A stretch of 64,000 nt of DNA from an uncultured Chloroflexia bacterium (GCA_963734895.1 CAVTIN010000004.1:360889-424888); one strand, 5' to 3'. Counted from the stretch's first letter, positions 7,177 to 55,026 are shown. Made by a program: numbers and translations. Notes: generated from the sequence alone by a model not told the origin.

Positions 7177-7650
7177 TCAGCCGAGATGTGGAACGTGGTC
7201 CGGGTAGTGGGCGGTCGAGTCCGAGATGACCGTCTCCGCGAGGCTGCCGTCGAGCCAGGGGTGCGGGTTCTCGGCGAACAGCTCCTCCTCGGACGAGCCC
7301 TCGACGGCGGCCACGAGGCGGGCGAACGAGGCGGCCTCTCCCCTGCGGACATCGGCGGGTGAGCGGCCCCGGTTCTCGGCCAGGATCCGCTCGTTCCAGG
7401 CATCCGCGTCCCACTCCGAATCGTCGCCCGGGTAGGGATCAACGCCGGTGCGGGAGCCCTCGATGACGTTCGTCGAATGGTCGTTCCACCATTCCACGTG
7501 CGCCAGGACGTCCTTGCGCGTCCAGCCCGCCATGTCCAGTGCCGGCCCGGCCAGCGCCTCGTCGTCCACCGCACCGGCCGCGGCCTCGATAGGCGCGTGG
7601 GCATCGTGCATGGCAGCGAGCAGCTCGATCTTGTCCATGGCGCGCAGCAT
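7177..7650 (-). CDS. DinB/ClbS-like four-helix-bundle protein
   Basis: 157-aa ORF with WTRKDVLAHVEWWNDHS and a C-terminal HYPDH, reminiscent of the ClbS/DfsB or DinB superfamily. Confidence 0.55.
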   Translation of the reverse strand: MLRAMDKIELLAAMHDAHAPIEAAAGAVDDEALAGPALDMAGWTRKDVLAHVEWWNDHSTNVIEGSRTGVDPYPGDDSEWDADAWNERILAENRGRSPADVRRGEAASFARLVAAVEGSSEEELFAENPHPWLDGSLAETVISDSTAHYPDHVPHLG

Positions 7651-7737
7651 ACTGGGGGCCGGCGACTCCGCCCGCCCCAGGTCGCGAAACTCGGGCGCCA
7701 GGATTGCTGGAGCGACCTACCAGGATCCCGAGGTCCT

Positions 7738-8916
7738 ATGAGCTCAGCGCCCCAACCCGCCTGCTTCCTGATCGCCGACATCTCCGGGTACACCGGCTAC
7801 CTCGCCGATGTCGAGCTCGACCATGCGCAGGACATCCTTGCGGACCTGATCGGGGCCGTGGTCAGCGCGCTCCGGCCGAACTTCCGGCTGGCGAAGCTCG
7901 AGGGCGATGCCGCGTTCACCCACGCCGCGGTGGAGCGGATCGACGGGTCGATGCTGCTGGACACGATCGAGCGCTGCTACTTCGGGTTCCGCCGGCGCCG
8001 CCGCGACGTCCGCCAGGCGACCTCGTGCGAGTGCAACGCGTGCAGCCGGATCCCGGACCTTGACCTCAAGTTCGTGGTCCACCATGGCGAGGCGATCGTC
8101 CAGAAGGTCGCGGGCCGCCAGGAGCTGCTCGGATCGGACGTGATCGTCGTCCACCGGCTGCTCAAGAACGACATCGTCGAGAAGCTCGGGATGAGCGCCT
8201 ACGCGCTGCTCACGCAGGTGTGCGTCGATGCGGCCGATATCGAGCCGGCGGCTCTGGGCATGCGTGCGCACACCGAGACGTACGACCGGATCGGGGACGT
8301 TCCCGCGTGGGCCCACGACCTGGAGCGCCGCTGGCAGCAGGAAGAAGAGCGCGCGCGGGTGTTCGTGAGCCCCGATGAGTCGATCCTCACGGTCTCGGTG
8401 CCGACCAAGGCTCCGCCGCAGGTCGCCTGGGAGTTCCTGACCAAGCCCGGGCAGCGGATGCTGTGGCAGCCGTGGGTGACCGAGGTCACGATCAAGGGCG
8501 CGACGGGCGGGCGGCGCGGGCTCGGCTCGGCCAACCACTGCCGGCACGGCAAGGACGCGGTGATCGAGGAGATCCTCGACTGGCGCCCCTACGACTACGT
8601 CACCGACCGGACGATCCTCGACACGCCCGCAGGGCCGCTGAAGCTGCCGCACACGATCGAATTCGAGCCGGTCCCCGACGGGACGGTGATCCACATGCGG
8701 TTCGGACCGCCGAAGGCGAAGAAGGACCTCGCGCTCGCCGCGGAGGTCGGCTCCCACTACGGCGACGCGCTCCGGTCGCGGCTCCCGACGCTGGTGGAGC
8801 TGCTCGACGCCGAGCTCGCGGCCCGGGAGACCGACCGCGGCCCCGAACCGGAGCTCGCGGCGCCGAGACCGGACGGACCGCTCGCGGGGCTCCAGTCGCT
8901 GGTCATCATCGACTGA
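7738..8916 (+). CDS. DUF2652 domain protein fused to an SRPBCC (START/polyketide-cyclase-like) domain
   Basis: The internal ATG at 7738 gives MSSAPQPACFLIADISGYTGYLADVELDHAQDIL (DUF2652-like). The C-terminal half (PPQVAWEFLTKPGQRMLWQPWV..) looks SRPBCC. The upstream part of ORF 7477.. overlaps the previous gene. Confidence 0.65.
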   Translation: MSSAPQPACFLIADISGYTGYLADVELDHAQDILADLIGAVVSALRPNFRLAKLEGDAAFTHAAVERIDGSMLLDTIERCYFGFRRRRRDVRQATSCECNACSRIPDLDLKFVVHHGEAIVQKVAGRQELLGSDVIVVHRLLKNDIVEKLGMSAYALLTQVCVDAADIEPAALGMRAHTETYDRIGDVPAWAHDLERRWQQEEERARVFVSPDESILTVSVPTKAPPQVAWEFLTKPGQRMLWQPWVTEVTIKGATGGRRGLGSANHCRHGKDAVIEEILDWRPYDYVTDRTILDTPAGPLKLPHTIEFEPVPDGTVIHMRFGPPKAKKDLALAAEVGSHYGDALRSRLPTLVELLDAELAARETDRGPEPELAAPRPDGPLAGLQSLVIID

Positions 8917-8935: not shown

Positions 8936-11596
8936 TCAACCCGCCTCGCGCTCGGGTTCCCGGCCGCGGATCGGCATGCCGAGGACCGAGGAAAGCTCGC
9001 GCCTGCCCGCGACGCCGAGCTTCCCGTAGACGGCGCCAAGATGGTTGTCGACCGTGCGAACGGAGATCCGCAGCCGGTGTCCGATCTCGCTCGACGATCT
9101 CCCCTCGGCCGCGAGCAACGCGATCTGGAGCTCGCGCGCCGTGAGCGGCACGGCAGTCGTCGTCGCGAGTGGGGGCGTCACCACACCGGGCAGATTCGAA
9201 GAGATCAGGCTCGCTCGCGCGGCGGCCATCCGCGCAGGGACCGGCGCCCCGGCTCGCAGGTGGGCGTCATGCGCATGGGCAGCCGATTCCGCCGCGCACA
9301 GCATGTTCCCCATTCGCTCGAACGCCACCGACACGCGGTCCAGCGCCTTGCCGTCTCCCTCGGCAAGTGCCTCGGCATGCTGGGCCATCGTCGCCACGAG
9401 CTCGCCCTCGACAGATCGGGCAAGCCCGGCCAGCCGGTCTCGAACCAGCTCCGGGTACCCGAGACGGACGGCATCGTGGTACGACCAGGCCGCCCAGACC
9501 AGGTGCGTATCGCTCGCGGCGCGATCGCCGGCAGCCTGGGCCAGGAGGGCGGCTGCGGCCGGTCCCTCCCGGCCCCAGGTGGTCCAGGTGGTGGCGCGGT
9601 CGAACTGGATCCTCGACCGCGCGTCGCGAACCAGGTGCTCGTCGACGATCTCCTGGTGGAACGCACGCGCGTCCTCGTGACGCCCCAGCCACGAGGCCAC
9701 GACGGCCGCGACCCCGGCCTGGATGCCGCGAATCGAGAAGGTATCGCGCTCCCGCGACACCGCCAGCGCCTCGAGGAGGGTCTGCAGGCTCCCGTCGATG
9801 TCACCGGCGAGCATCTGGCCCTCCGCGAGGATCATCGCCCACATCCCCGCCACCTCGGCGGCCCCGGATTCGATGGCTGCCCGCCGACCTGCCTCGCACA
9901 GCGCAATCGAATCGGACAGCTGCCCCACGTAGGCATGCGCCATTGCGCGGTTGATCAGGAGAATGTCCTGCGCGAGCGGCACCTCCTCGCGCACCTGCGG
10001 GGCATGCTCCAGGGCGCGGGTCACCTGGGTCTCCGCGTCCTCGAACCTGCCGAGCATGACGTTGGCAATGCTCGAGTACATCAGGGTATGGACCACCGTC
10101 CGGGGCCCGGCCGTCGGCCGGAGCGCCAGTCGCTCCCCGATTGCCGCGACGCCGGGGAGGTCACCCGCGCCAGTCCGGAACAGCACGAGCAGCGAGTCGA
10201 TCTCGTCGCGCCAGTCCTCGTCGTCGACCCGGGCGGCCGCCGCTTCGAGGATCGTCGACGCTTCGGCCGGGCGGCCGGCCCGGAAGCCGATCAGGTTTGC
10301 CCGCGCGAGCGCGACCGCCGAGATATCCGCGTCGGTGCTCGCAACCGACGCGGCCCGGGCGAGTGCGCGCTCGGCATCCTCGATACGCTGCTGCGCGGCC
10401 ATCGCCCGACCCAGCGCGAGCTGCGCGGCGATGTTGTCCGGTTCCTCGCCCAGCACCGCGCGGGCGAGCCGTTCCGCGAGCGGTGCGTCGAACGCGGCCA
10501 GGGCATGCCCGGCCGCCCCGAGGGCCCGTGCCGCGGGCATGTGTCCGCCCCCGTCCAGCCGCCACAGCGCGAGCCGCAGGAGATCATCGCGCCGCCGCGC
10601 GCCCGTCGCCTCGAGCATGTCGGCCAGCCAACGCCTGATGCGACGTGCGCGGGTCGGTGGCAATGCCGCGGCAACGACGTCGGCGTAGATCGGGTGGGCG
10701 AGGCGAACGCGCTGGCGGTTCCCGCTGCGATCGATCTCCACCAGGCGCCGATCGTCGAGCCGCTCCAGGGCGTCTGGATCGTCGAGCTTCTCGAGCATCC
10801 GAAGGTCGACCCACCCACCGACGGCGATGGCCTCGACGACGCGTCGTTCGGCTGCATCGAGGCGACCCAGCCGCCCCTCGACGAGCTGGCTCAGTCGCTC
10901 CGAGGGCACGAGCCCATCGAGCGCCCGCCAGCCGCTCCCGGCCCGGACGAGCATCCGGCTCTCCAGTCCGCCGAGCACGAGCTCGCGAAGGAACATCGGA
11001 TTGCCACCGGAGCGATGCCACAGCGTGGATCTCGTCAACGGCTCGACCGGCCCGCCGAGGGCGATCTCGAGCAGCTGGCCGGTCTCCTCCTCGGACAGCG
11101 GCTCCACCCGCACCCGCTCCAGCAGCCCGTCCTTCCAGAGCTCCGTCAGGTCCGCTGCTGCCTGGTTGCCCGGACGCCGCGTGATGATCACGAACGCGTC
11201 CGACCTCGCGACCAGGCCGCGCACCAGCGCGGCGGAGTGACTGTCGAGCAGGTGCGCGTCGTCGATGGCGAGGACAATTCGACCGGCGTGGCCGGACTGT
11301 CGCGTGAGCTCCGCAAGCAGCCCGGCGAGCAGCTGACGCTCGTCGGTCGCGCCGGTCGGGAGCGAAATGAGGTGCACGAACGCACCAAACGGAATGTCCG
11401 ATGTGGCGCGCGAGGCGACGATCCACGTCGTTGCCATGCCCGCGCGCAGCGGCTCTCGCCGACCAGCTCGACGGGCGAGCCGGCTCTTGCCCACGCCGTC
11501 CTCGCCGACGATCTCGATCCCGCGGGCATCCTCTTGGGCCAGGAGTCTGCCGAGACGGAGCAGGGTCGAGTCGCGGCCGATGAGCGGCCACTCCAT
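8936..11596 (-). CDS. large ATP-binding LuxR-family (LAL/MalT-like) transcriptional regulator
   Basis: 886 aa. N-terminal Walker A (GEDGVGKSRLA), a long helical-repeat middle region, and a C-terminal LuxR HTH (LTARELQIALLAAEGRSSSEIGHRLRISVRTVDNHLGAVYGKLGV). Confidence 0.85.
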   Translation of the reverse strand: MEWPLIGRDSTLLRLGRLLAQEDARGIEIVGEDGVGKSRLARRAGRREPLRAGMATTWIVASRATSDIPFGAFVHLISLPTGATDERQLLAGLLAELTRQSGHAGRIVLAIDDAHLLDSHSAALVRGLVARSDAFVIITRRPGNQAAADLTELWKDGLLERVRVEPLSEEETGQLLEIALGGPVEPLTRSTLWHRSGGNPMFLRELVLGGLESRMLVRAGSGWRALDGLVPSERLSQLVEGRLGRLDAAERRVVEAIAVGGWVDLRMLEKLDDPDALERLDDRRLVEIDRSGNRQRVRLAHPIYADVVAAALPPTRARRIRRWLADMLEATGARRRDDLLRLALWRLDGGGHMPAARALGAAGHALAAFDAPLAERLARAVLGEEPDNIAAQLALGRAMAAQQRIEDAERALARAASVASTDADISAVALARANLIGFRAGRPAEASTILEAAAARVDDEDWRDEIDSLLVLFRTGAGDLPGVAAIGERLALRPTAGPRTVVHTLMYSSIANVMLGRFEDAETQVTRALEHAPQVREEVPLAQDILLINRAMAHAYVGQLSDSIALCEAGRRAAIESGAAEVAGMWAMILAEGQMLAGDIDGSLQTLLEALAVSRERDTFSIRGIQAGVAAVVASWLGRHEDARAFHQEIVDEHLVRDARSRIQFDRATTWTTWGREGPAAAALLAQAAGDRAASDTHLVWAAWSYHDAVRLGYPELVRDRLAGLARSVEGELVATMAQHAEALAEGDGKALDRVSVAFERMGNMLCAAESAAHAHDAHLRAGAPVPARMAAARASLISSNLPGVVTPPLATTTAVPLTARELQIALLAAEGRSSSEIGHRLRISVRTVDNHLGAVYGKLGVAGRRELSSVLGMPIRGREPEREAG

Positions 11597-45976: not shown

Positions 45977-46290
45977 TCAGCCGTGCGGGGGCGCCACGGC
46001 CGGCTCCTCACCAACGCGATCCCGGCCGCCTTCCTTCGCCGCGCAAAGCGCCCGATCCGCGCGATCGACCACGTAGCCGTCCGAATCTCCGGGTCGCCAT
46101 ACCGCCACGCCCGAGGCTGGCGGTGACCGTCTCGGGTACGCCCGGGGGAGATGCCTCCCGGATCGGTTGAGATGACGCGCCGTCATGACACGGGTTGGCG
46201 AGCGACCGACCCTGAACGTGGACGTGTTTGCCCGTCATGATCTCGCCGCCCGTCCGAGCGGCCATCCTCGAGCGACGCCATCGGGAGGTC
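45977..46290 (-). pseudogene. remnant of a GGDEF-domain gene (C-terminal fragment, frameshifted)
   Basis: ORF 45977..46186 ends ..[33 protein letters not shown] (the GGDEF C-terminal ADxALYxAKxxGRNRV pattern). The preceding ..ETVTASLG lies in another frame (ORF 46008..46346). No intact N-terminal part exists. Confidence 0.5.
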
Positions 46291-46291
46291 G

Positions 46292-49200
46292 ATGAGCGAA
46301 CAGCGGGCCGGGGCTGCGAGTCGACGGGGCGAGATGAACCTGGCAAGGCGGCAGGACGACGAACGGGCCGCAGCGGCGCGCCGTGATGAGGCGACCCAGC
46401 GATTCGAGGTGCGGCGGTTCCTCAACCTCCTGATCGTCACGGCCATGATCACCATGCTGATCGATGTCATCGCGTCAATCGCCATCGGCAGTCCCCGGTG
46501 GTTCGCGCCGGTGATCGTGGGAGGATTGGTCGGCGGATGGCTTGCGGCGGGACCCCGCCGCGCGATCGATCACGGCAATGTCCAGGCGATCGTGAGTCGG
46601 GTGGCGATCGTGGTCATCGCCTGGATCCTCGTGGTGGCGTTGTTCCAGCCGTTCCTCGCGCTTGCCCTGGTGCCGGCCTACCTGGTGCCGGTCGCGATGG
46701 GCCTGCCGTACCTCGAAGGGCGAGGGCTTCGTCTGGTCATGGGCCTTGCGTGGGTGGCGGCCATTGGCTCCATGCTCGTCCATCTCCTCCCCGACGACGC
46801 GGCCCCGGCTGTGGTCGAGACAATCGTGGAGGTGGTGGCCCTCGTCACGGTGATCGGGGTCGTCTTCGTCGTCCTGAACCGGGGTGCGGTGACCCTCAAG
46901 GCCTCGGGTCGTGAGTTCCGCCGGCTGTTCCAGCTGTCATCCGACCTCGCCGAGACGACCGATCCGGGGGTGCTCGGCCCGCTTGTCGCGCGGCACCTCG
47001 CCGAGGCGACCGGGTTCGACGACTGCGTCATCTACGCGCTCGCACCAGACACGGACCGCCTCGCCCCGTTCGGATCGCATCCCGTCGAGCGTTCGCTCGA
47101 GACGGCTCCCGAGTCGATCGCGGCGCGGCCCATGCTCGCGCGCGTTGCCAACGATCAGGCGTCGTCCGTGATCGACGTGGCCGACGAGCAGGCGGACCCG
47201 CTCGAACGTGACCGCCTCCGGGCCCTCGGTCGAACAACCATGCTGCTCCTGCCCCTCACGGCCCAGGAGCGCTCGGTCGGGATCGCCGAGCTGACGAGCG
47301 CCGTGCCCCACTCGATCGACGTACGAGTGCTCGCCCTCGCCCGGACGCTGACGTTCGAGGCGGCCATGGCGATCGAGAACGGGCGGCTCTACCAGGAGCT
47401 CCGCCATCGGTCGCTCCACGATCCGCTCACCGGTCTCGCCAACCGGAGCCTGTTCGACGATCGCGCGGAGCATGCCATCGCCCGGCAGGCTCGCAAGGAT
47501 GGGACAGGGGTCGCGGTCCTGTTCATGGACCTCGATGGGTTCAAGACCATCAACGACACGCTCGGTCATGCCCGGGGCGACCGGCTGCTGACCCTCATCG
47601 GCGAGCGGCTGCGGACGGTGGCCAGGGCAGGCGATACCGTGGCTCGTCTCGGCGGTGACGAGTTCGCATTACTGCTCGAGGACGTGGCCTCCGTCGACGC
47701 CGCGCTCGCCGTGGCCGCGCGGGTGGTCGATGCTGTTGCCGAACCGTTCGATCTTGCCGGTCAGCACACCAGGACATCGGTCTCGATCGGTGTGGCGTTC
47801 CGGACTGCGCAGGACGCCACCCTCGACGATCTGCTCGCGGATGCGGATGCCGCGATGTACGAGGCGAAGGCGGCCGGCAAGGGCCGGGCCGTGCTATCAG
47901 CGGGCAGTCGCGTCGCCCAGGATCTGGGCCCCGCAGCCACGTCGGCCGAGGCCATGACCACGCCGCACATCCCTGCGGTCGTCGTCGAGATGCCGAGGCT
48001 GCGAGACGACGGGGGCGAGGCAGGCCCCACGAAACGATCCGGGGACGAAAGGGCTGCAGCCCCAAGCCCCGACAACGCGATCCAGCGAGTCGAGGTGCGG
48101 CGGTTCCTCAGTATCCTGATCGTCACGACGCTGATCGGTGGCACCATGGTCACCATCGCGGCCATCGCCGTCGACAATCCAAGGTGGTTTGCGACGACGA
48201 TCCTTGCCGTCGCGACCTCCACCTGGCTCGCCGCCTTCCCCCGCCGCGCCGTCGACCACGAACCCATCGAGACGGTCGTCAGCCAGGTCGCGATCGTGCT
48301 CACGGGCACCATCGTCGTGGTCGCGATCGTCCAGCCGTTCCTCGCGCTGGTCCTGGCGCCGGCCACGCTGTTGCCGGTCGCGCTCGGTCTTCCCTACCTT
48401 GCGGGGCGGTCGCTCCGCCACCTGATGGTTTCTGCCTGGGTGGCAACCGTGGCAATCGTGTTTGCAGGTCTCTTCCCCGACGACGCGGTCCCGCCCACGG
48501 TCGCGATCCTCGTGCGTATGTGGGTCCTCGCCACCGTGATCGGGCTTGTCTTCTTCCTCCTGTACCGGTCGGCCGAGGGCCTCAAGGCCTCGGGTCGTGA
48601 GTTCCGCCGGCTGTTCCAGCTGTCATCCGACCTCGCCGAGACGACCGATCCGGGGGTGCTCGGCCCGCTTGTCGCGCGGCACCTCGCCGAGGCGACCGGG
48701 TTCGACGACTGCGTCATCTACGCGCTCGCACCAGACACGGACCGCCTCGCCCCGTTCGGATCGCATCCCGTCGAGCGTTCGCTCGAGACGGCTCCCGAGT
48801 CGATCGCGGCGCGGCCCATGCTCGCGCGCGTTGCCAACGATCAGGCGTCGTCCGTGATCGACGTGGCCGACGAGCAGGCGGACCCGCTCGAACGTGACCG
48901 CCTCCGGGCCCTCGGTCGAACAACCATGCTGCTCCTGCCCCTCACGGCCCAGGAGCGCTCGGTCGGGATCGCCGAGCTGACGAGCGCCGTGCCCCACTCG
49001 ATCGACGTACGAGTGCTCGCCCTCGCCCGGACGCTGACGTTCGAGGCGGCCATGGCGATCGAGAACGGGCGGCTCTACCAGGAGCTCCGCCATCGGTCGC
49101 TCCACGATCCGCTCACCGGTCTCGCCAACCGGAGCCTGTTCGACGATCGCGCGGAGCATGCCATCGCCCGGCAGGCTCGCAAGGATGGGACAGGGGTCGC

Positions 49201-50104
49201 GGTCCTGTTCATGGACCTCGATGGGTTCAAGACCATCAACGACACGCTCGGTCATGCCCGGGGCGACCGGCTGCTGACCCTCATCGGCGAGCGGCTGCGG
49301 ACGGTGGCCAGGGCAGGCGATACCGTGGCTCGTCTCGGCGGTGACGAGTTCGCATTACTGCTCGAGGACGTGGCCTCCGTCGACGCCGCGCTCGCCGTGG
49401 CCGCGCGGGTGGTCGATGCTGTTGCCGAACCGTTCGATCTTGCCGGTCAGCACACCAGGACATCGGTCTCGATCGGTGTGGCGTTCCGGACTGCGCAGGA
49501 CGCCACCCTCGACGATCTGCTCGCGGATGCGGATGCCGCGATGTACGAGGCGAAGGCGGCCGGCAAGGGCCGGGCCGTGCTATCAGCGGGCAGTCGCGTC
49601 GCCCAGGATCTGGGCCCGCAGCCACGTCGGCCGGGTGACCGCCGGTCGGCACTCCATTCCGCGCGCTGGTTGAGCCGGGACGGAGCGGTTGCCCGTTTGT
49701 GCACATCCGTGCCGGATCGTTCACGAGCGTACCGGGGACACTGGTGCTCGGGGATCGCGGGCTCCGAGGAACGGAGCGGAGAGGGAACGGGCCCTCACGG
49801 GCCGCAGTCAGTCAGGCGCTCGACCCCGATGCCCGCGCTCTGGGCGGGACGCGCTTCCCGGGTGAGGTCCTCCCTGACGTACACGATGGCGTGGCGATCA
49901 GGGCTTCGGCAGCGCCGCGGCGGTTACAGTGCGACCGTGGAACCCCGCGTTCTGTTGCTCCACCGGTCGTGTGTGAGGCCCCGGGACCGCGCAGTGGGCG
50001 AGCCGTCGCGTCGATACGATGGCGTCGGGGACCGCCTGCAGCCTTGGTCTCGGACGGCGCATCGGACTGTCGTCCCGTATCGATCGCATGGGCAGGAACG
50101 ATGA
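46292..50104 (+). CDS. tandem double membrane-sensor/GAF/GGDEF diguanylate cyclase, read as one 1270-aa ORF in this sequence
   Basis: Two modules are present, 46292-~47950 and ~47990-~49636. Each has about five TM helices, a GAF-like region and GGDEF (RLGGDEFALLL). Module 2 could start at the ATG at 47990. The last ~160 aa (49617-50104) are Arg/Ser-rich out-of-frame read-through. Confidence 0.65.
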   Translation: MSEQRAGAASRRGEMNLARRQDDERAAAARRDEATQRFEVRRFLNLLIVTAMITMLIDVIASIAIGSPRWFAPVIVGGLVGGWLAAGPRRAIDHGNVQAIVSRVAIVVIAWILVVALFQPFLALALVPAYLVPVAMGLPYLEGRGLRLVMGLAWVAAIGSMLVHLLPDDAAPAVVETIVEVVALVTVIGVVFVVLNRGAVTLKASGREFRRLFQLSSDLAETTDPGVLGPLVARHLAEATGFDDCVIYALAPDTDRLAPFGSHPVERSLETAPESIAARPMLARVANDQASSVIDVADEQADPLERDRLRALGRTTMLLLPLTAQERSVGIAELTSAVPHSIDVRVLALARTLTFEAAMAIENGRLYQELRHRSLHDPLTGLANRSLFDDRAEHAIARQARKDGTGVAVLFMDLDGFKTINDTLGHARGDRLLTLIGERLRTVARAGDTVARLGGDEFALLLEDVASVDAALAVAARVVDAVAEPFDLAGQHTRTSVSIGVAFRTAQDATLDDLLADADAAMYEAKAAGKGRAVLSAGSRVAQDLGPAATSAEAMTTPHIPAVVVEMPRLRDDGGEAGPTKRSGDERAAAPSPDNAIQRVEVRRFLSILIVTTLIGGTMVTIAAIAVDNPRWFATTILAVATSTWLAAFPRRAVDHEPIETVVSQVAIVLTGTIVVVAIVQPFLALVLAPATLLPVALGLPYLAGRSLRHLMVSAWVATVAIVFAGLFPDDAVPPTVAILVRMWVLATVIGLVFFLLYRSAEGLKASGREFRRLFQLSSDLAETTDPGVLGPLVARHLAEATGFDDCVIYALAPDTDRLAPFGSHPVERSLETAPESIAARPMLARVANDQASSVIDVADEQADPLERDRLRALGRTTMLLLPLTAQERSVGIAELTSAVPHSIDVRVLALARTLTFEAAMAIENGRLYQELRHRSLHDPLTGLANRSLFDDRAEHAIARQARKDGTGVAVLFMDLDGFKTINDTLGHARGDRLLTLIGERLRTVARAGDTVARLGGDEFALLLEDVASVDAALAVAARVVDAVAEPFDLAGQHTRTSVSIGVAFRTAQDATLDDLLADADAAMYEAKAAGKGRAVLSAGSRVAQDLGPQPRRPGDRRSALHSARWLSRDGAVARLCTSVPDRSRAYRGHWCSGIAGSEERSGEGTGPHGPQSVRRSTPMPALWAGRASRVRSSLTYTMAWRSGLRQRRGGYSATVEPRVLLLHRSCVRPRDRAVGEPSRRYDGVGDRLQPWSRTAHRTVVPYRSHGQER
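46894..47931 (+). repeat. copy 1 of a 1,038-bp perfect direct repeat (GAF-GGDEF coding part)
   Basis: Identical to 48580-49617 (offset 1686 bp). The duplicated reverse-strand ORFs in the track (46937..47569 = 48623..49255) confirm this. Confidence 0.95.
48580..49617 (+). repeat. copy 2 of the 1,038-bp perfect direct repeat
   Basis: See copy 1. After the repeat, copy 1 has CCCC and copy 2 has CCC, followed by 16 more identical nt. Confidence 0.95.
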
Positions 50105-50925
50105 AACCAGCCGACGTCACGATCATTGTGACAACCTTCAACCGGCCGGAATGGCTGGCTGTCTCCGTGTTCTCGATCCTCTCGAGTGCCGCGAATGCGA
50201 GCCGCTCAGGCATCACGACAAGGATCCTTGTCGTTGATGATGGATCCGAGGGTTCGGGTACGCGAGACGTCGCGGCAAGGGCCGGAGTCGACTACCTCCG
50301 AATTGCGGCGAACAGTGGCCGTGCGACGCCCTCGTTCGGCCGCGTCGCGGGCCTTCAGGTGGCCGACAGCCCCTTCGTGGCGTTCTTTGACGACGACGAC
50401 GCAATGCTCCCGCGGTGGATCCCCCTGCACGTCGCCCGCCTGCGCGAAGGCCACGACGTCTGCTCCACCGCGTTCTGGCGGACCGACTCCGAGCTGCTCC
50501 CGACGAGGTTGGTGTCACTGCCGGCCGTGACATTCGGCGACCTTCTCGACGGCCGCTTCGCGGTGAACGACGGGAGCCTCATGCGCCGCTCGGCCCTTGA
50601 CGGGTCAAACCTCGACCCCGAGCTCGAGAACGTCATGCTTGCCGATCTTTGGCTCGACATGGCATTCCGCGGATGCGCGTTCACGCGCTTGGATGAGGCG
50701 ACCTTCCTGTATCGCCGGCACGGCACAAACTCCTCGGATCACCTCACTGCGCTCGACGCCGAGACCCGTCGCGCAGTCCTGGCGCGCCACCGCCAGCGGG
50801 TCATTGCCCGCGACGGTTCGTTGCCTGCGCCCACGCCCCGGCCCGCCCCTCCGCCGAGGCAGCGCTCGCGGCTCACAAGCTGGCGCCGCTTCGCGGGCCG
50901 CGTCCTGAGGAACCGTCAAGGCTGA
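50101..50925 (+). CDS. family 2 glycosyltransferase
   Basis: The ATG at 50101 gives MKPADVTIIVTTFNRPEWL.., VVDDGS and FFDDDD (DxD) motifs. Confidence 0.8.
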   Translation: MKPADVTIIVTTFNRPEWLAVSVFSILSSAANASRSGITTRILVVDDGSEGSGTRDVAARAGVDYLRIAANSGRATPSFGRVAGLQVADSPFVAFFDDDDAMLPRWIPLHVARLREGHDVCSTAFWRTDSELLPTRLVSLPAVTFGDLLDGRFAVNDGSLMRRSALDGSNLDPELENVMLADLWLDMAFRGCAFTRLDEATFLYRRHGTNSSDHLTALDAETRRAVLARHRQRVIARDGSLPAPTPRPAPPPRQRSRLTSWRRFAGRVLRNRQG

Positions 50926-51063: not shown

Positions 51064-54000
51064 ATGGAGATCCGGATCCTCGGCTCCCTCGAGGTCGTCG
51101 AGGGGGGTCTGGTCAGCGCGATCGCGTCCCGGCGTCAGCGTGCCCTGCTCGCACTCCTGCTCGTCCATGCCGGTCGGCCCGTCTCGACCGAGCATATCCT
51201 CGACGCGCTGTGGGGCGATTCGCCGCCGGAGAGCGGTTCTGGCAGCGTCGCGTTCCATGTGTCGCGCCTCAGGGCAGCGCTGGAACCCGGGCCACGCGAC
51301 GAACCCGGAACCGCCAACGGCCGGGGCCCGATCACGACCGAGGCCGGCGGCTACGCCCTGCGGATCGAGCCCGACGCGATCGACGCGGTCCGGTTCGAGC
51401 GCCTGGCGAGGGAGGGTCACGAGCTCCTCGCCGATGAACCCGCCGTGGCCGCATCGCGGCTTCGCGACGCCCTGGCCCTGTGGCGCGGCGAGCCCTTCGA
51501 GGGCCTCACGGACGAAGCGTTCCTTCAGCCGGAGATCGCCCGCCTCCACGAGCTGCGGCTGCGTGCATTCGAGGACCGTTTCGAGGCGGACCTCTCGCTC
51601 GGTCGCGGTCGCGACATCGCGGGCGAGCTTGAGTCCCTCGTGGCCGAGGAGCCGCTGCGTGAGCACCTGCGGGCGCAGCTCATGCGCGCCCTGTACGGCG
51701 CCGGCCGCCAGGCGGACGCGTTGCGCATCTACCAGGATGGTCGACGCCTGCTTGTCGATGAGCTGGGCATCGACCCGTCCGCCGAGCTCCAGGCGCTCGA
51801 GCTGGCGATCCTGCGCCAGGACGTGACGCTCGACGTTGCGCGGCCCTCCTCCGGCCCGCGGAACCCGTACAAGGGCCTGCGGCCGTTCGGCGAGGCGGAC
51901 GCGGGTGACTTCTTCGGGCGTGAGCTGTTTGCAGAGCGGCTGATCGAGCGCCTCGAAGCGGTGTCGCGGGCGGGCGGTCTGCTGCTGCTCGTCGGACCCA
52001 GCGGGAGCGGGAAGTCCAGCGTCATCCGGGCCGGGCTGTTGCCGCTGCTCCGAGCGCCGGCCCCCGGCCACGAGGCATGGCGCGTCGCGGTCATGCTGCC
52101 GGGCAGCCGTCCGACGGAAGCGCTGCTGCGGGCGTTGGACACAGTCGTCACGGCCCCGCAGGGCACGGCCCCGCAGGACACGGCCCCACAGGGCACGACC
52201 CCGCAGGGCTCAGCGTCGGGGGCCGAGGGGGCGGACATCGCGGAGGCGCTCACCCGGGCGGCCGCCGCTGATCCGCGCCGACTGCTCCTGGTCATCGACC
52301 AGCTCGAGGAGCTGTTCGCGCTTGCGACCGATCCGGGCGAACCGTCCGGATTCCTCCGCAGCATCGCCGCCGCACTGACCGGGCCCCCGCCACGCCCGGC
52401 CGTTGTCGCATCGTTGCGAGCCGACTGGTTCGATCGGCCGTTGCTCAGCGCGGAGCTCGGGGCGCTCGTTCGGGATGCCGTCGAGGTCGTGACCCCGCTG
52501 ACCCGCGACGAGCTCGAGCGGGCCATCGTGCGGCCGGCCACCGCGGTCGGTGTCGAGCTCGAGCCTGGCCTGGCGGCAGACCTCGAGGCCGACGTGGCCG
52601 ACCGGCCCGGGGCGCTCCCGCTCCTGCAGTTCGCCCTGACCGAGCTGTTCGAGCGGGCCGAAGGCAAGCGGCTCAGTCGAGAGTCCTACGCGGCCATTGG
52701 CGGCGTGGCCGGTGCGGTTGGCCGGCGGGCGGAGACGGTCTTCGCATCACTCGACCAGCCGGCGCGCGACCTCGCCCGCCAGCTGTTCCTGCGGATGACT
52801 GCCGTGGGCGAAGGGCGGACCGTGGCTGCCCGACGGGTCGTGGTGGACGACCTGCGCTCGATCGAGGCGACAGCCGAGCGTGTCGACGCCGTGCTCGAAG
52901 CCTTCGGACGATGGCGATTGCTGGCCTTCGACCGTGATCCGCGCTCGGGCCGGGCGACCGTCGAGCCGGCACACGAAGCGCTGCTCACGCACTGGCCGCG
53001 ACTCGCCGGCTGGATCCAGGAGGCAGAGGAGGCGCTCTGGATGCAGGCGCGGCTGAGCGCCACGGCCACCGAATGGGAAGCAACGGACCGGGACCCTGGG
53101 TTCCTCCTGGCCGGCAGCCGCCTCGACCTGTTCGAGACATGGAGCGCCACCACCGACATCCGCCTCGACGCGCTCGAGCGCGAGCTGCTCGAGGCGAGCC
53201 TGGTCGAGCGCCGGCGGGCCGAGCAGGCCGAGCGCGATCGCCGCGATCAGGAGCGCCGGCTCGAACGCCGGGCGTCGACGAGGCTTCGGGCGCTCGTGGC
53301 CGTGCTCCTTGCAGGCGTGATCGGGGTCTCGGGGCTGCTCGCCGTCGTCTGGCGCCAGGGGGAGGGCGCCCGCGAGGATCGGGCGATCGCCATGGCGCGC
53401 GAGTTGGCGGTGGCCGCGAACGGGCGCCTCGACACCGATCCGACGCTGGCCCTGCTTCTGGCCGCCGAGGCGGCGCGGGCGACGGCCGACCGGGGGTGGA
53501 TCACGGAGGAGGCGCTCGATGCGCTGCACTGGGCTGTTCAACGGGCGCGGGTCCCGTACCCGTCGGGCGACGTCCCCGTTGCGGTGCGACTCGCGCCGCC
53601 CCCCATCGGTGCCCGCGGCGTCTATCTGCTGCCGGCCCGCGACCTGATCGAGCTCGCCGACACCTCCGCTGGGCGGTCGCTCACCGCTGACGAATGCCGA
53701 ACTTACCTGCACCAGCCGGCCTGTCCGGCGGCGGATCGACGCCAGGTGGACGCGAATCTCGGGGTCATGACCGCCACGGGCGAGGTGGCGATGACCGATC
53801 TCGCGGCGCAGGGCAGCGGAGGTGTGAGCCTGCGGGTCGTCTCGCAGCTGCCCGCCGATCTGGCCGCTGCGCTGACCGACTATGCGGCCCAGGGCGGTGC
53901 CATCTCCTTCACGGATGACGACGGCACCGGCGATCCTCCAGCCCTGGTCGAGCAGGCTGACGTCGCCATCCTTGCTCGCCCAGGCGACGTCACTGACCTG

Positions 54001-55026
54001 GCCCGTGCGGGCCTGCTGCTGTCGCTGGACGAGGTCCTGTCGCCGGCCGACCTCGCAGCGCTCGAGGCGGGACCGCTGGCCGATCTCGGCCGGGTCCAGC
54101 CGTTGGACGCCGCGGGCGCGCGCCTCGTCGGTGCCCCGATCGCGGCGACGGCCTCCGGTCTGCTGTGGTACCCGGCCGACGCCTTCGCCGTTGCGGGCTA
54201 CGAGCCACCGGCCACCTGGGAGGCACTGGAGCAGCTCGTCGAGCGGATGATCCAGGATGGTCGCACGCCGTGGTGTCTCGGCCTGCTTGGGGGTGAGCAC
54301 GATGGGGCCTACGGCGCCGACCTGGTCGAGGACCTGGCCGCCGATCTACTGACCGCGCCCGGCTTTGACGCCTGGGCGGCTGGACGAACCGGTTTCAGCC
54401 TTGCCATCGAGGCTGCGTTTCGCCGCTATCACGCGCTGATCCAGCAGACTGGCGCCGTCCTCGGCGGCCCCGAGACGGCCATTCGAACGCCGGCGGCGTG
54501 GGCGGCACTCCAGATGGGCCGAGGCGAGCTGCCGGAGTGCTGGCTGATCCACGCGAGCGGCGATCAGCGGGCGACCTGGGAACAGGGCATTCGTGAGGAC
54601 CTCACTCCGGTCCGCCTTCCGGTCCGCGCCGAAGGAGCGACCGTGCTGCGTGGGCGTGTGTACACGCTCGTCGTGCTTCGTGACCGGCCCGAGGTCAGGA
54701 CCTTCGTGCAGTACCTGCTCGGCACGGACTTCGCGGGCCGGCTGATCAGCGAGGATTCGGGAAGCGGGCTGGTCCCGCTCGCGTCCCCGGGTGCGGGGGC
54801 GACACGAACCGCTACCGAGCGGGACATGGCCGGCCTCGTGGAATTGGCGCTGGCGGCAGGCACCTTCCTGGTTGACGCGTCCGACCGGATGCCGCGGACA
54901 CTCGGCGTCATCGCGTTCCCGGACTCGGCCATGCGCGTCGCCGGGATCCCGGCAGGCTCCCCGGAGGCCGCCATCGCCGGTGAGCTCGACCTGCTGGAAC
55001 GGATCCGTCTCGAGGCCCTTCCTTGA
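51064..55026 (+). CDS. BTAD/SARP-type winged-helix regulator fused to a STAND P-loop NTPase, one TM helix and an extracytoplasmic solute-binding-protein-like domain
   Basis: 1320 aa:
- N-terminal MEIRILGSLEV..RRQRALLALLLVH..VSTEHILDALWGD (OmpR/SARP wHTH)
- BTAD (ALALWRGEPFEGL..LRAQLMRALYGAGRQADALRIYQ)
- NPYKGLRPFGEADAGDFFGRE..LVGPSGSGKSS (Walker A)
- TM LRALVAVLLAGVIGVSGLLAVVW
- a C-terminal region resembling ABC sugar-binding proteins. Confidence 0.8.
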   Translation: MEIRILGSLEVVEGGLVSAIASRRQRALLALLLVHAGRPVSTEHILDALWGDSPPESGSGSVAFHVSRLRAALEPGPRDEPGTANGRGPITTEAGGYALRIEPDAIDAVRFERLAREGHELLADEPAVAASRLRDALALWRGEPFEGLTDEAFLQPEIARLHELRLRAFEDRFEADLSLGRGRDIAGELESLVAEEPLREHLRAQLMRALYGAGRQADALRIYQDGRRLLVDELGIDPSAELQALELAILRQDVTLDVARPSSGPRNPYKGLRPFGEADAGDFFGRELFAERLIERLEAVSRAGGLLLLVGPSGSGKSSVIRAGLLPLLRAPAPGHEAWRVAVMLPGSRPTEALLRALDTVVTAPQGTAPQDTAPQGTTPQGSASGAEGADIAEALTRAAAADPRRLLLVIDQLEELFALATDPGEPSGFLRSIAAALTGPPPRPAVVASLRADWFDRPLLSAELGALVRDAVEVVTPLTRDELERAIVRPATAVGVELEPGLAADLEADVADRPGALPLLQFALTELFERAEGKRLSRESYAAIGGVAGAVGRRAETVFASLDQPARDLARQLFLRMTAVGEGRTVAARRVVVDDLRSIEATAERVDAVLEAFGRWRLLAFDRDPRSGRATVEPAHEALLTHWPRLAGWIQEAEEALWMQARLSATATEWEATDRDPGFLLAGSRLDLFETWSATTDIRLDALERELLEASLVERRRAEQAERDRRDQERRLERRASTRLRALVAVLLAGVIGVSGLLAVVWRQGEGAREDRAIAMARELAVAANGRLDTDPTLALLLAAEAARATADRGWITEEALDALHWAVQRARVPYPSGDVPVAVRLAPPPIGARGVYLLPARDLIELADTSAGRSLTADECRTYLHQPACPAADRRQVDANLGVMTATGEVAMTDLAAQGSGGVSLRVVSQLPADLAAALTDYAAQGGAISFTDDDGTGDPPALVEQADVAILARPGDVTDLARAGLLLSLDEVLSPADLAALEAGPLADLGRVQPLDAAGARLVGAPIAATASGLLWYPADAFAVAGYEPPATWEALEQLVERMIQDGRTPWCLGLLGGEHDGAYGADLVEDLAADLLTAPGFDAWAAGRTGFSLAIEAAFRRYHALIQQTGAVLGGPETAIRTPAAWAALQMGRGELPECWLIHASGDQRATWEQGIREDLTPVRLPVRAEGATVLRGRVYTLVVLRDRPEVRTFVQYLLGTDFAGRLISEDSGSGLVPLASPGAGATRTATERDMAGLVELALAAGTFLVDASDRMPRTLGVIAFPDSAMRVAGIPAGSPEAAIAGELDLLERIRLEALP
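52150..52209 (+). repeat. 15-nt (APQGT) imperfect tandem repeat x4 inside the STAND gene
   Basis: acggccccgcagggc / acggccccgcaggac / acggccccacagggc / acgaccccgcagggc. Confidence 0.85.

Follow-up and report, generated by a model that had tools for sequence, protein, structure and literature searches.

We analyzed a 64,000-nucleotide (nt) stretch of DNA from an uncultured soil Chloroflexia bacterium (GCA_963734895.1 CAVTIN010000004.1:360889-424888; hereafter, the window), which contains a tandem of two homologous units, A and B. Each unit encodes a membrane part with six transmembrane helices (6TM) followed by a cytoplasmic GAF-GGDEF part, as in a predicted diguanylate cyclase. We propose that recurrent gene conversion homogenizes the GAF-GGDEF halves while the membrane parts stay distinct, and we hold this to be very probably the history of the locus. 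An earlier reading of the sequence alone (hereafter, the original prediction) had preferred gene conversion of the output module, and it is now supported by the identity of the copies within genomes, by the incongruent trees of the two parts, and by the state of the locus in one relative, in which the same architecture carries diverged copies. The elements of the tandem are as follows.

46292..49638, plus strand: fused open reading frame (ORF), (6TM-GAF-GGDEF)x2, with a length of 1,115 codons once the C-run at 49615-49617 regains one base
46283..46288, plus strand: Shine-Dalgarno-like GGGAGG, 3 nt before the ATG at 46292, the sole such site in the locus
46292..46893, plus strand: N-terminal part of module A, a charged cytoplasmic leader and six transmembrane helices, A type
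46894..47931, plus strand: repeat copy 1, comprising the cytoplasmic continuation of the sixth transmembrane helix (TM6), GAF, a linker helix and GGDEF
47651-47665 and 47624-47635, plus strand: GGDEF motif and RxxD inhibitory site (I-site; RAGD) of copy 1
47932..48085, plus strand: junction, the tail of unit A without a stop, in frame into the leader of unit B
47978..48579, plus strand: N-terminal part of module B, leader and six transmembrane helices, B type
48580..49617, plus strand: repeat copy 2, with the same content as copy 1
49337-49351 and 49310-49321, plus strand: GGDEF motif and RAGD site of copy 2
49615..49617, plus strand: C-run CCC, one base shorter than the CCCC of copy 1 (47929-47932)
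49636..49638, plus strand: TGA, the canonical stop of unit B, which the assembly places out of frame

The exact repeat was established by direct string comparison; the output of a repeat finder consisted of diverged N-terminal matches only. Positions 46894-47931 and 48580-49617 form a maximal match of 1,038 nt with zero mismatches, in direct orientation at an offset of 1,686 nt (562 codons), so that ~62% of each unit is homogenized. Beyond the match, copy 1 has one extra C (GGGCCCC versus GGGCCC), after which 16 nt (GCAGCCACGTCGGCCG) are again identical before the copies part (AGGCC versus GGTGA). The 5' border is sharp: identity in 60-nt windows is 60-80% before it and 100% after it, and the peptides read VFVVLNRGAVT in unit A and VFFLLYRSAEG in unit B up to the border and LKASGREF in both beyond it. 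Upstream of 46894 the units share short identical runs only, and their membrane-coding parts are 69% identical in nucleotides and ~53% in amino acids. The original prediction had described the identical segments and their offset, the abrupt start of identity, the 16 nt past a 1-nt indel, the homologous but differing transmembrane regions and the two boundary peptides, all of which stood up to direct comparison and translation. Between the two copies there are no synonymous differences at ~278 synonymous sites, while the synonymous divergence (dS) of the membrane parts is ~0.5. No third copy was found in the window. GC-biased conversion was considered and dropped, as the third-position G+C content of the repeat (84%) is not above that of the membrane parts (86-88%).

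The same tandem architecture is present in three further assemblies: a contig of ENA assembly ERZ25039500 that is 99.7% identical to the window and was reached via a katG match (L086), a Microflora Danica metagenome-assembled genome (MAG) whose flanking genes, compared in their true frames, give a background dS to the window of 0.17-0.35 (L001), and an assembly from a more distant genome, L002. The L001 tandem has the same offset of 1,686 nt and its own exact repeat of 1,015 nt (7616-8630 equal to 9302-10316). The repeats of the window and L001 are 93% identical and differ at 72-78 sites (44 synonymous, 28 non-synonymous), and at all of these sites both copies within each genome share one base. 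The two copies in L086 differ at one single-nucleotide polymorphism (SNP; 49582) and in the tail, with the change relative to the window in copy 2 only. L002 has the same fused junction, while its GAF-GGDEF copies are 83% identical (dS 0.32, 72 synonymous differences). At this level of divergence ~175 differences would be predicted in 1,038 nt where the window has none, and chance therefore cannot account for the repeat. Because L002 combines the fused junction with diverged copies, the architecture must be older than the homogenization. The comparison with related genomes that the original prediction had recommended thus shows identity within genomes and divergence between them. Nucleotide identities for the two parts of the units are listed here.

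Membrane part, A types among themselves: 82-98%
Membrane part, B types among themselves: 73-97%
Membrane part, A versus B: 65-73%
Cytoplasmic part, window A versus window B: 100%
Cytoplasmic part, L001 A versus L001 B: 100%
Cytoplasmic part, L081_A versus L082_B: ~99.6%
Cytoplasmic part, L002 A versus L002 B: 83%

No A/B structure is seen in the cytoplasmic part, where the identity matrices pair copies across types. The A-type gene of L081 and the B-type gene of L082, contigs of one metagenome assembly, differ at 4 of ~1,095 nt in the cytoplasmic part and at ~30% of positions in the membrane part. Separate phylogenies of the N- and C-terminal halves, which had also been recommended, disagree in the same way. 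A neighbor-joining tree of the membrane part with bootstrapping resolves A and B clades, while in the tree of the cytoplasmic part the sequences pair by genome or assembly (the two copies of the window, the two of L001, and L081_A with L082_B, each with 100% bootstrap support) and a further cross-type pair, L002_B with L085_A, is also supported at 100%. The homogenized tracts are discrete and their endpoints vary: at the 3' side they end at 47931 (+17) in the window, ~47895 in L086 and ~47908 in L001, and at the 5' side the tract of the window starts at 46894 and that of L001 at 7616, which is 13 nt further downstream. The L086 tract thus ends ~36-53 nt earlier than that of the window, reflecting either further conversion since these 99.7%-identical strains separated or an end of copy 2 in the window that is partly a polishing artefact. 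These are the features of concerted evolution: copies more alike within a genome (100%) than between the window and L001 (93%), incongruent trees from converted and unconverted segments, a duplication older than the identity, and tracts with differing ends.

Substitution rates also differ between the two parts. The ratio of non-synonymous to synonymous change (omega) is 0.72-0.88 between the A and B membrane parts (46397-46893 versus 48083-48579), 0.25-0.5 for membrane-part orthologues of the window and L001, 0.5-0.8 for those of the window and L002, and 0.22-0.44 in the cytoplasmic part. The values for the membrane parts fit relaxed or diversifying selection once A and B had split, and the contrast with the cytoplasmic part fits sensors that diverge while the output is constrained. 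The paralogy of A and B is old, and the two membrane parts have diverged in function; relatives also carry each type in separate genes of a single module.

The 1,038-bp identity would result from recent, recurrent non-reciprocal homologous recombination between direct repeats 1,686 bp apart. The 5' end of the tract, where TM6 exits the membrane, may mark the point upstream of which the units, at ~69% identity, are too diverged for strand exchange; identity of 69% with short identical runs is below the usual tolerance of homologous strand exchange. Tracts overwriting a sensor would presumably also be selected against, since the A/B difference, which is conserved across the clade, would be erased. 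The 3' end would simply be the end of homology. The tandem persists in four genomes though 1-kb direct repeats should promote deletion, which suggests selection for both modules, and such selection may be what preserves two distinct sensors.

Identity of this kind could also be spurious. The original prediction had cautioned against an assembly artefact, in which copies that really differ, or a single copy, would have been collapsed and re-copied by the assembler or altered in polishing to give false identity or a chimeric tandem. We judge this improbable. The same 1,686-bp tandem and junction recur in four assemblies from at least three samples, and the copies in them are not forced to identity, with single differences kept in L086 and L001 and 17% in L002. 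The L001 repeat is internally identical yet ~75 sites away from that of the window, which is not predicted by a within-sample collapse. Illumina unitigs cross two of the four repeat borders, from the A-type transmembrane region (TM_A) to the repeat (46641-46950) and from the repeat to the junction (47757-47948), and a further unitig crosses the border between the repeat and the B tail in a close strain. In addition, a 1-kb repeat is shorter than typical Nanopore reads. Several observations weigh on the other side. The contigs L086 and L082 of the parallel assembly ERZ25039500 end a few bases past the repeat, as in a tangled assembly graph; no long reads spanning 46.2-50.2 kb were found; and Illumina unitigs do not cover the junction at 47949-47991 or the border between the B-type transmembrane region (TM_B) and the repeat. 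The CCC/CCCC indel in copy 2 resembles a consensus error, indel errors are visible in the assemblies (e.g., PNTB genes in pieces in L084), and all four tandem assemblies apparently come from one kind of pipeline (Nanopore-only metaFlye plus Medaka; PMC12313526), which makes a shared repeat effect conceivable. Two further points limit the main reading: L081 and L082 may come from different genomes, and an open frame across the ~36-codon junction is by itself not improbable at the 70% G+C of the window. The earlier caution is only partly lifted, as independent assemblies and some Illumina unitigs agree. Unitig k-mer depth over the repeat is not two-fold that of its flanks in four shallow Illumina metagenomes (~4x, mixed strains), though unique segments in these data themselves vary two-fold. 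Divergent unitigs in Illumina runs X1 and X2 were considered as a non-identical second copy and dropped, since they carry a variant common to other members of the family, such as L002_A.

If the identity is real, it could have sources other than recurrent conversion between the two units. A very recent partial duplication, which the original prediction had offered as an alternative, would have copied the GAF-GGDEF half once beside a second membrane domain that was already there. The lack of any difference over 1,038 bp would fit so young a duplicate, but we consider it very improbable: the diverged copies of L002, with their homologous junction and the same two-module architecture, contradict it and make the second half old; L001 was homogenized independently, with slightly different tract ends; relatives carry single-module B-type genes with full GAF-GGDEF halves; and a TM_A-CT unit (CT, GAF-GGDEF half; J, junction) cannot give TM_A-CT-J-TM_B-CT by simple tandem duplication. 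We give almost no credence to purifying selection alone keeping the enzyme halves identical without recombination. The GAF-GGDEF part is indeed the more constrained of the two (omega of 0.22-0.44 versus 0.7-0.9), but selection on the protein leaves synonymous sites free to change, as they have at 72 positions in L002 and at none in the window, and the 28 non-synonymous differences between the window and L001 halves show that the sequence can change. The identity could also have an outside source, with one GAF-GGDEF cassette brought into both positions by recombination with a third family member or with the DNA of a relative. Between the window and L001, dS is 0.023 in membrane part A and 0.065 in membrane part B, against 0.175 in the cytoplasmic part and the background of the flanking genes; the cytoplasmic part of L002_B is 92% identical to that of L085_A, an affinity across types and genomes; and dispersed A and B genes in ERZ25039500 share a near-identical cytoplasmic part. 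However, the window holds no third copy, no protein in a 5.8-billion-sequence database is >90% identical to the cytoplasmic part of the window or L001, and a single change with later conversion is a more parsimonious account than two imports of one cassette, so this source also seems to us improbable; its mechanism would, moreover, still be gene conversion.

The contrast in synonymous divergence points to a mosaic history between lineages. Across the locus (window 46292-49617 versus L001 7001-10316), the synonymous divergence of the membrane parts is 3-15 times below that of the flanking genes and the GAF-GGDEF part. The block of homology between the window and L001 ends at the borders of the locus (46169-49681), and the immediate neighborhoods differ: in L001 the place of katG is taken by a B12-binding gene and an unrelated GGDEF gene. 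No mobile-element genes were found beside the L001 locus. To judge from these comparisons, the locus or parts of it may have been exchanged laterally between lineages recently, with a different history for the cytoplasmic part. A resident third family member that re-converted newcomers would explain the contrast in dS; as to such a donor, none was found in the window, and the best match to the cytoplasmic part in the protein database is 90% identical. At a finer scale, 15 SNPs cluster in TM_B (window 48143-48535 versus L086 12354-12746), with an L086 allele similar to that of L001; three of them recur in a unitig of Illumina run X4. This pattern points to a recent patch of recombination between strains. 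The locus is a recombination mosaic at several scales.

Two other arrangements of these genes were seen in ERZ25039500. In L082 (3647-7674), a single B-type gene, whose upstream region and leader are A-like, comes after katG, and in L086 (8001-13836) katG precedes the A-B fusion; each contig breaks off within 15 nt of where the repeat ends. The single B-type gene of L082 may have arisen from a fusion by deletion or recombination, or it could belong to a different organism. In L081 (7730-8106), short ORFs with a degenerate GGDEF-like fragment (SDSEF) lie between the single A-type gene and a response-regulator gene.

The original prediction spoke of tandem paralogues. There are indeed two homologous units, but they are modules of one ORF and not two genes. 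As assembled, a single frame from 46292 to 50104 (1,270 codons) passes through both units with no in-frame stop between them, and unit A is without a stop in 4 of 4 tandem assemblies. The fused ORF of L001 has 1,115 codons and ends in VVPTAG before the stop, and that of L002 has ~1,133 codons. The ancestral TGA of unit A is out of frame, within GCC ATG ACC at 47951-47959, and the junction frame reads DLGPAATSAEAMTTPHIPAVVVEMPRLRDD on into the unit B leader, giving SAEAMTTPHIPAVVVEMPR as the peptide across the junction. The junction, of which the first 17 nt (47932-47948) are common to the tail of unit B, is homologous and open in the window, L001 and L002. In L002 its frame retains the canonical C-terminal peptide GRAAPTA and then continues with the phase kept (AAPTA followed by E); because the canonical peptide is still read there, the junction frame is the true one and the stop has really been lost. 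Since an open frame alone is unremarkable in DNA of this composition, the argument for fusion rests on the lost stop and the preserved phase.

The fused polypeptide is presumably produced. No Shine-Dalgarno site comparable to that of unit A and no promoter-like region were found before unit B. The ATG at 47954 is conserved, while that at ~47990 occurs in the window only and in neither L001 nor L002. Module B could be initiated separately at the conserved ATG, although ribosomes translating unit A must still enter unit B. Among the sequences searched, only the window, L086, L001 and L002 have the two modules fused: exact look-up of the 1,270-residue ORF returned no record, the best hits of either protein search included no fused homologue (many unrelated proteins carry two GGDEF stretches), and a search of JGI metagenome contigs for the junction DNA gave 0 hits with a first pattern and 78 with a looser one, all of them chance matches with no cyclase nearby.

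The shorter C-run of copy 2 frameshifts the last 8 codons of unit B, a consequence that the original prediction, which had correctly noted the 1-nt indel, did not notice. With four Cs at 49615-49617, the TGA is in frame and the ORF has 1,115 codons, ending in PAATSAG before the stop; the context of this stop (GCC GGG TGA CCG CCG GTC, 49630-49647) is the same ending as in the single-unit homologues L081 and L082. L086 has an extra base at the C-run (GGGGCAC) and is in frame there. One Illumina unitig, from run X2, shows no gap when aligned with the tail of copy 1 and then passes into GGTGACCGC, which is the tail of unit B; a unitig from run X4 with CCCC stops exactly at the branch point between A and B, as it should if that 31-mer is common to both tails. 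The related MAGs were assembled with metaFlye from Nanopore reads only and polished once with Medaka (PMC12313526). The transhydrogenase genes of L084 (PNTB/AlaDh_PNT; 1-1756) are called in several short pieces, and these split genes show indel errors in such long-read assemblies, which bears on how far single-base indels can be trusted. Given the longer run in L086, the gap-free X2 unitig and the split genes elsewhere, the CCC frameshift is most likely a Nanopore consensus error rather than a real strain-specific mutation.

The domain content of the protein is clear for its cytoplasmic halves. Pfam profiles match twice along the fused protein, with GGDEF (PF00990) at E = 8e-93 (best stretch residues 375-531, profile positions 2-160 of 161) and GAF families in two stretches each (GAF_3, 5.6e-16; GAF, 3e-11; GAF_2, 7e-10). 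Both modules have the motif RLGGDEF, in which G454, G455, D456 and E457 are invariant in 97-104 homologues, and the RxxD inhibitory site is intact five residues before the motif (RAGD-TVARL-GGDEF), with R445 and D448 likewise invariant; many GGDEF cyclases, though not all, have this site. From the intact motif and I-site, the predicted GGDEF domains would be expected to have cyclase activity. The N-terminal 6TM region matched no Pfam family, with chance-level hits only (PsaL, 0.11; TgpA_N, 0.027), and its position suggests a role as a sensor.

An AlphaFold2 model, which covers unit A only, has a predicted local distance difference test score (pLDDT) of 88 and a long amphipathic leader helix followed by six membrane helices. 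In the model, TM6 is one helix (residues 173-221) that runs into GAF, and the border of the repeat (201/202) lies inside it, at the exit from the membrane. Given a positively charged leader and an even number of helices (six), the N and C termini of the membrane domain are probably both cytoplasmic, which would make a tandem fusion topologically possible. Foldseek matches included 4zmu, 3icl, 4iob and PleD, with target-normalized TM-scores of 0.8-0.88 on GGDEF-only chains. The best PDB match of the cytoplasmic half is the GAF-GGDEF cyclase DcsbIS (4zmu; PA2771 of Pseudomonas aeruginosa) at 26% identity. DcsbIS shares the order GAF, helix, GGDEF with this half; it is soluble and consists of a single module, whereas the window protein has a 6TM N-terminal domain and is a tandem duplicate.

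The best 120 homologues (P0001-P0120) are single modules of ~460-610 residues, mostly 520-570, with 50-88% identity, and all of them align to the first half of the fused protein. Their sources are uncultured Chloroflexota, under names such as Limnocylindria and Chloroflexia. Two types of N-terminus occur among them, matching unit A and unit B, and their canonical end is PTAG before the stop. These MAG proteins thus resemble the modules of the window in family, in A/B N-terminal domains and in their C-terminal end, but they are encoded by separate genes with their own start and stop, while the window form is fused and has two modules.

Three further features flank the tandem.

46172..46186, plus strand: perfect palindrome ATGACG-cgc-CGTCAT, a candidate operator, ~105 nt before the start codon
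43790..45931, plus strand: katG (catalase-peroxidase), upstream neighbor
50101..50925, plus strand: family-2 glycosyltransferase, directly downstream neighbor

The A-type genes of the window, L001, L002 and L081 all have the palindrome upstream, as does the B-type gene of L082, and it may, judging from this conservation, be an operator for some regulator; within the tandem it lies before unit A only. GTCATGA also occurs at ~46233-46239. As assembled, the frameshifted cyclase ORF reaches the start of the glycosyltransferase gene, and a polysaccharide function of this neighbor linked to cyclic di-GMP (c-di-GMP) is possible. Further downstream, a 1,320-codon ORF (51064-55026) with Trans_reg_C, BTAD and nSTAND1 NTPase domains contains a 15-nt unit repeated ~4 times (52149-52209; peptide TAPQGTAPQDTAPQGTTPQG).

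The process that we propose is a known one and involves no new mechanism; the added feature is that the converting units are modules of one ORF. In the tufA/tufB genes and rRNA operons, RecA-type gene conversion keeps copies near-identical within a genome while they diverge between species. There, whole genes are homogenized and the copies are functionally redundant, whereas in the window only ~62% of each unit is homogenized and the rest is kept distinct. A closer parallel in form is provided by the mammalian receptors TLR1 and TLR6, in which gene conversion limits the divergence of tandem receptor paralogues (PMC2077338). As in our locus, the signaling part is homogenized and groups by species while the ligand-binding part diverges; unlike our locus, the system is eukaryotic and consists of two genes whose products are heterodimer partners of a third protein, while here the units are bacterial, lie in one ORF and have an enzyme as output. 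Segmental concerted evolution is also known from the outer-membrane paralogues babA/babB and homA/homB of Helicobacter pylori (PMC2795765, PMC3960876), whose conserved end segments are homogenized by intragenomic recombination while a variable segment sets the type. Those genes encode dispersed surface adhesins that exchange segments for antigenic or adhesive variation, whereas in the window the cytoplasmic catalytic half is homogenized, the units are adjacent and in frame, and there is no sign of phase variation. Nothing relevant came up when the literature was searched for gene conversion in combination with diguanylate cyclase paralogues.

We also considered the idea that the fusion is functional and the identity itself selected. 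Because GGDEF catalysis needs two domains brought together, two sensors could each drive one of two identical halves, forming an intramolecular pseudo-homodimer that integrates two signals, and recurrent intragenic conversion would then keep the two halves mutually compatible. As a corollary, GAF-GGDEF cassettes would pass among family members and strains as exchangeable output modules, and this circulation would account for the lower synonymous divergence, by a factor of 3-8, of the membrane parts of the window and L001 compared with their cytoplasmic parts. We regard this as unlikely. Whatever its merit, the (6TM-GAF-GGDEF)x2 protein offers a testable model of how a single c-di-GMP output might receive two membrane inputs.

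As a natural case of domain-restricted concerted evolution in a bacterial signaling enzyme, the locus is unusually clean and is replicated across genomes: the sensors diverge at an omega of ~0.8 while the outputs stay identical. It indicates that conversion can work inside one reading frame, between interleaved modules, and that it acts at the strain level, since tract ends vary between 99.7%-identical genomes. Such exchange can mislead domain-wise GGDEF trees and the assignment of orthologues in MAG catalogues.

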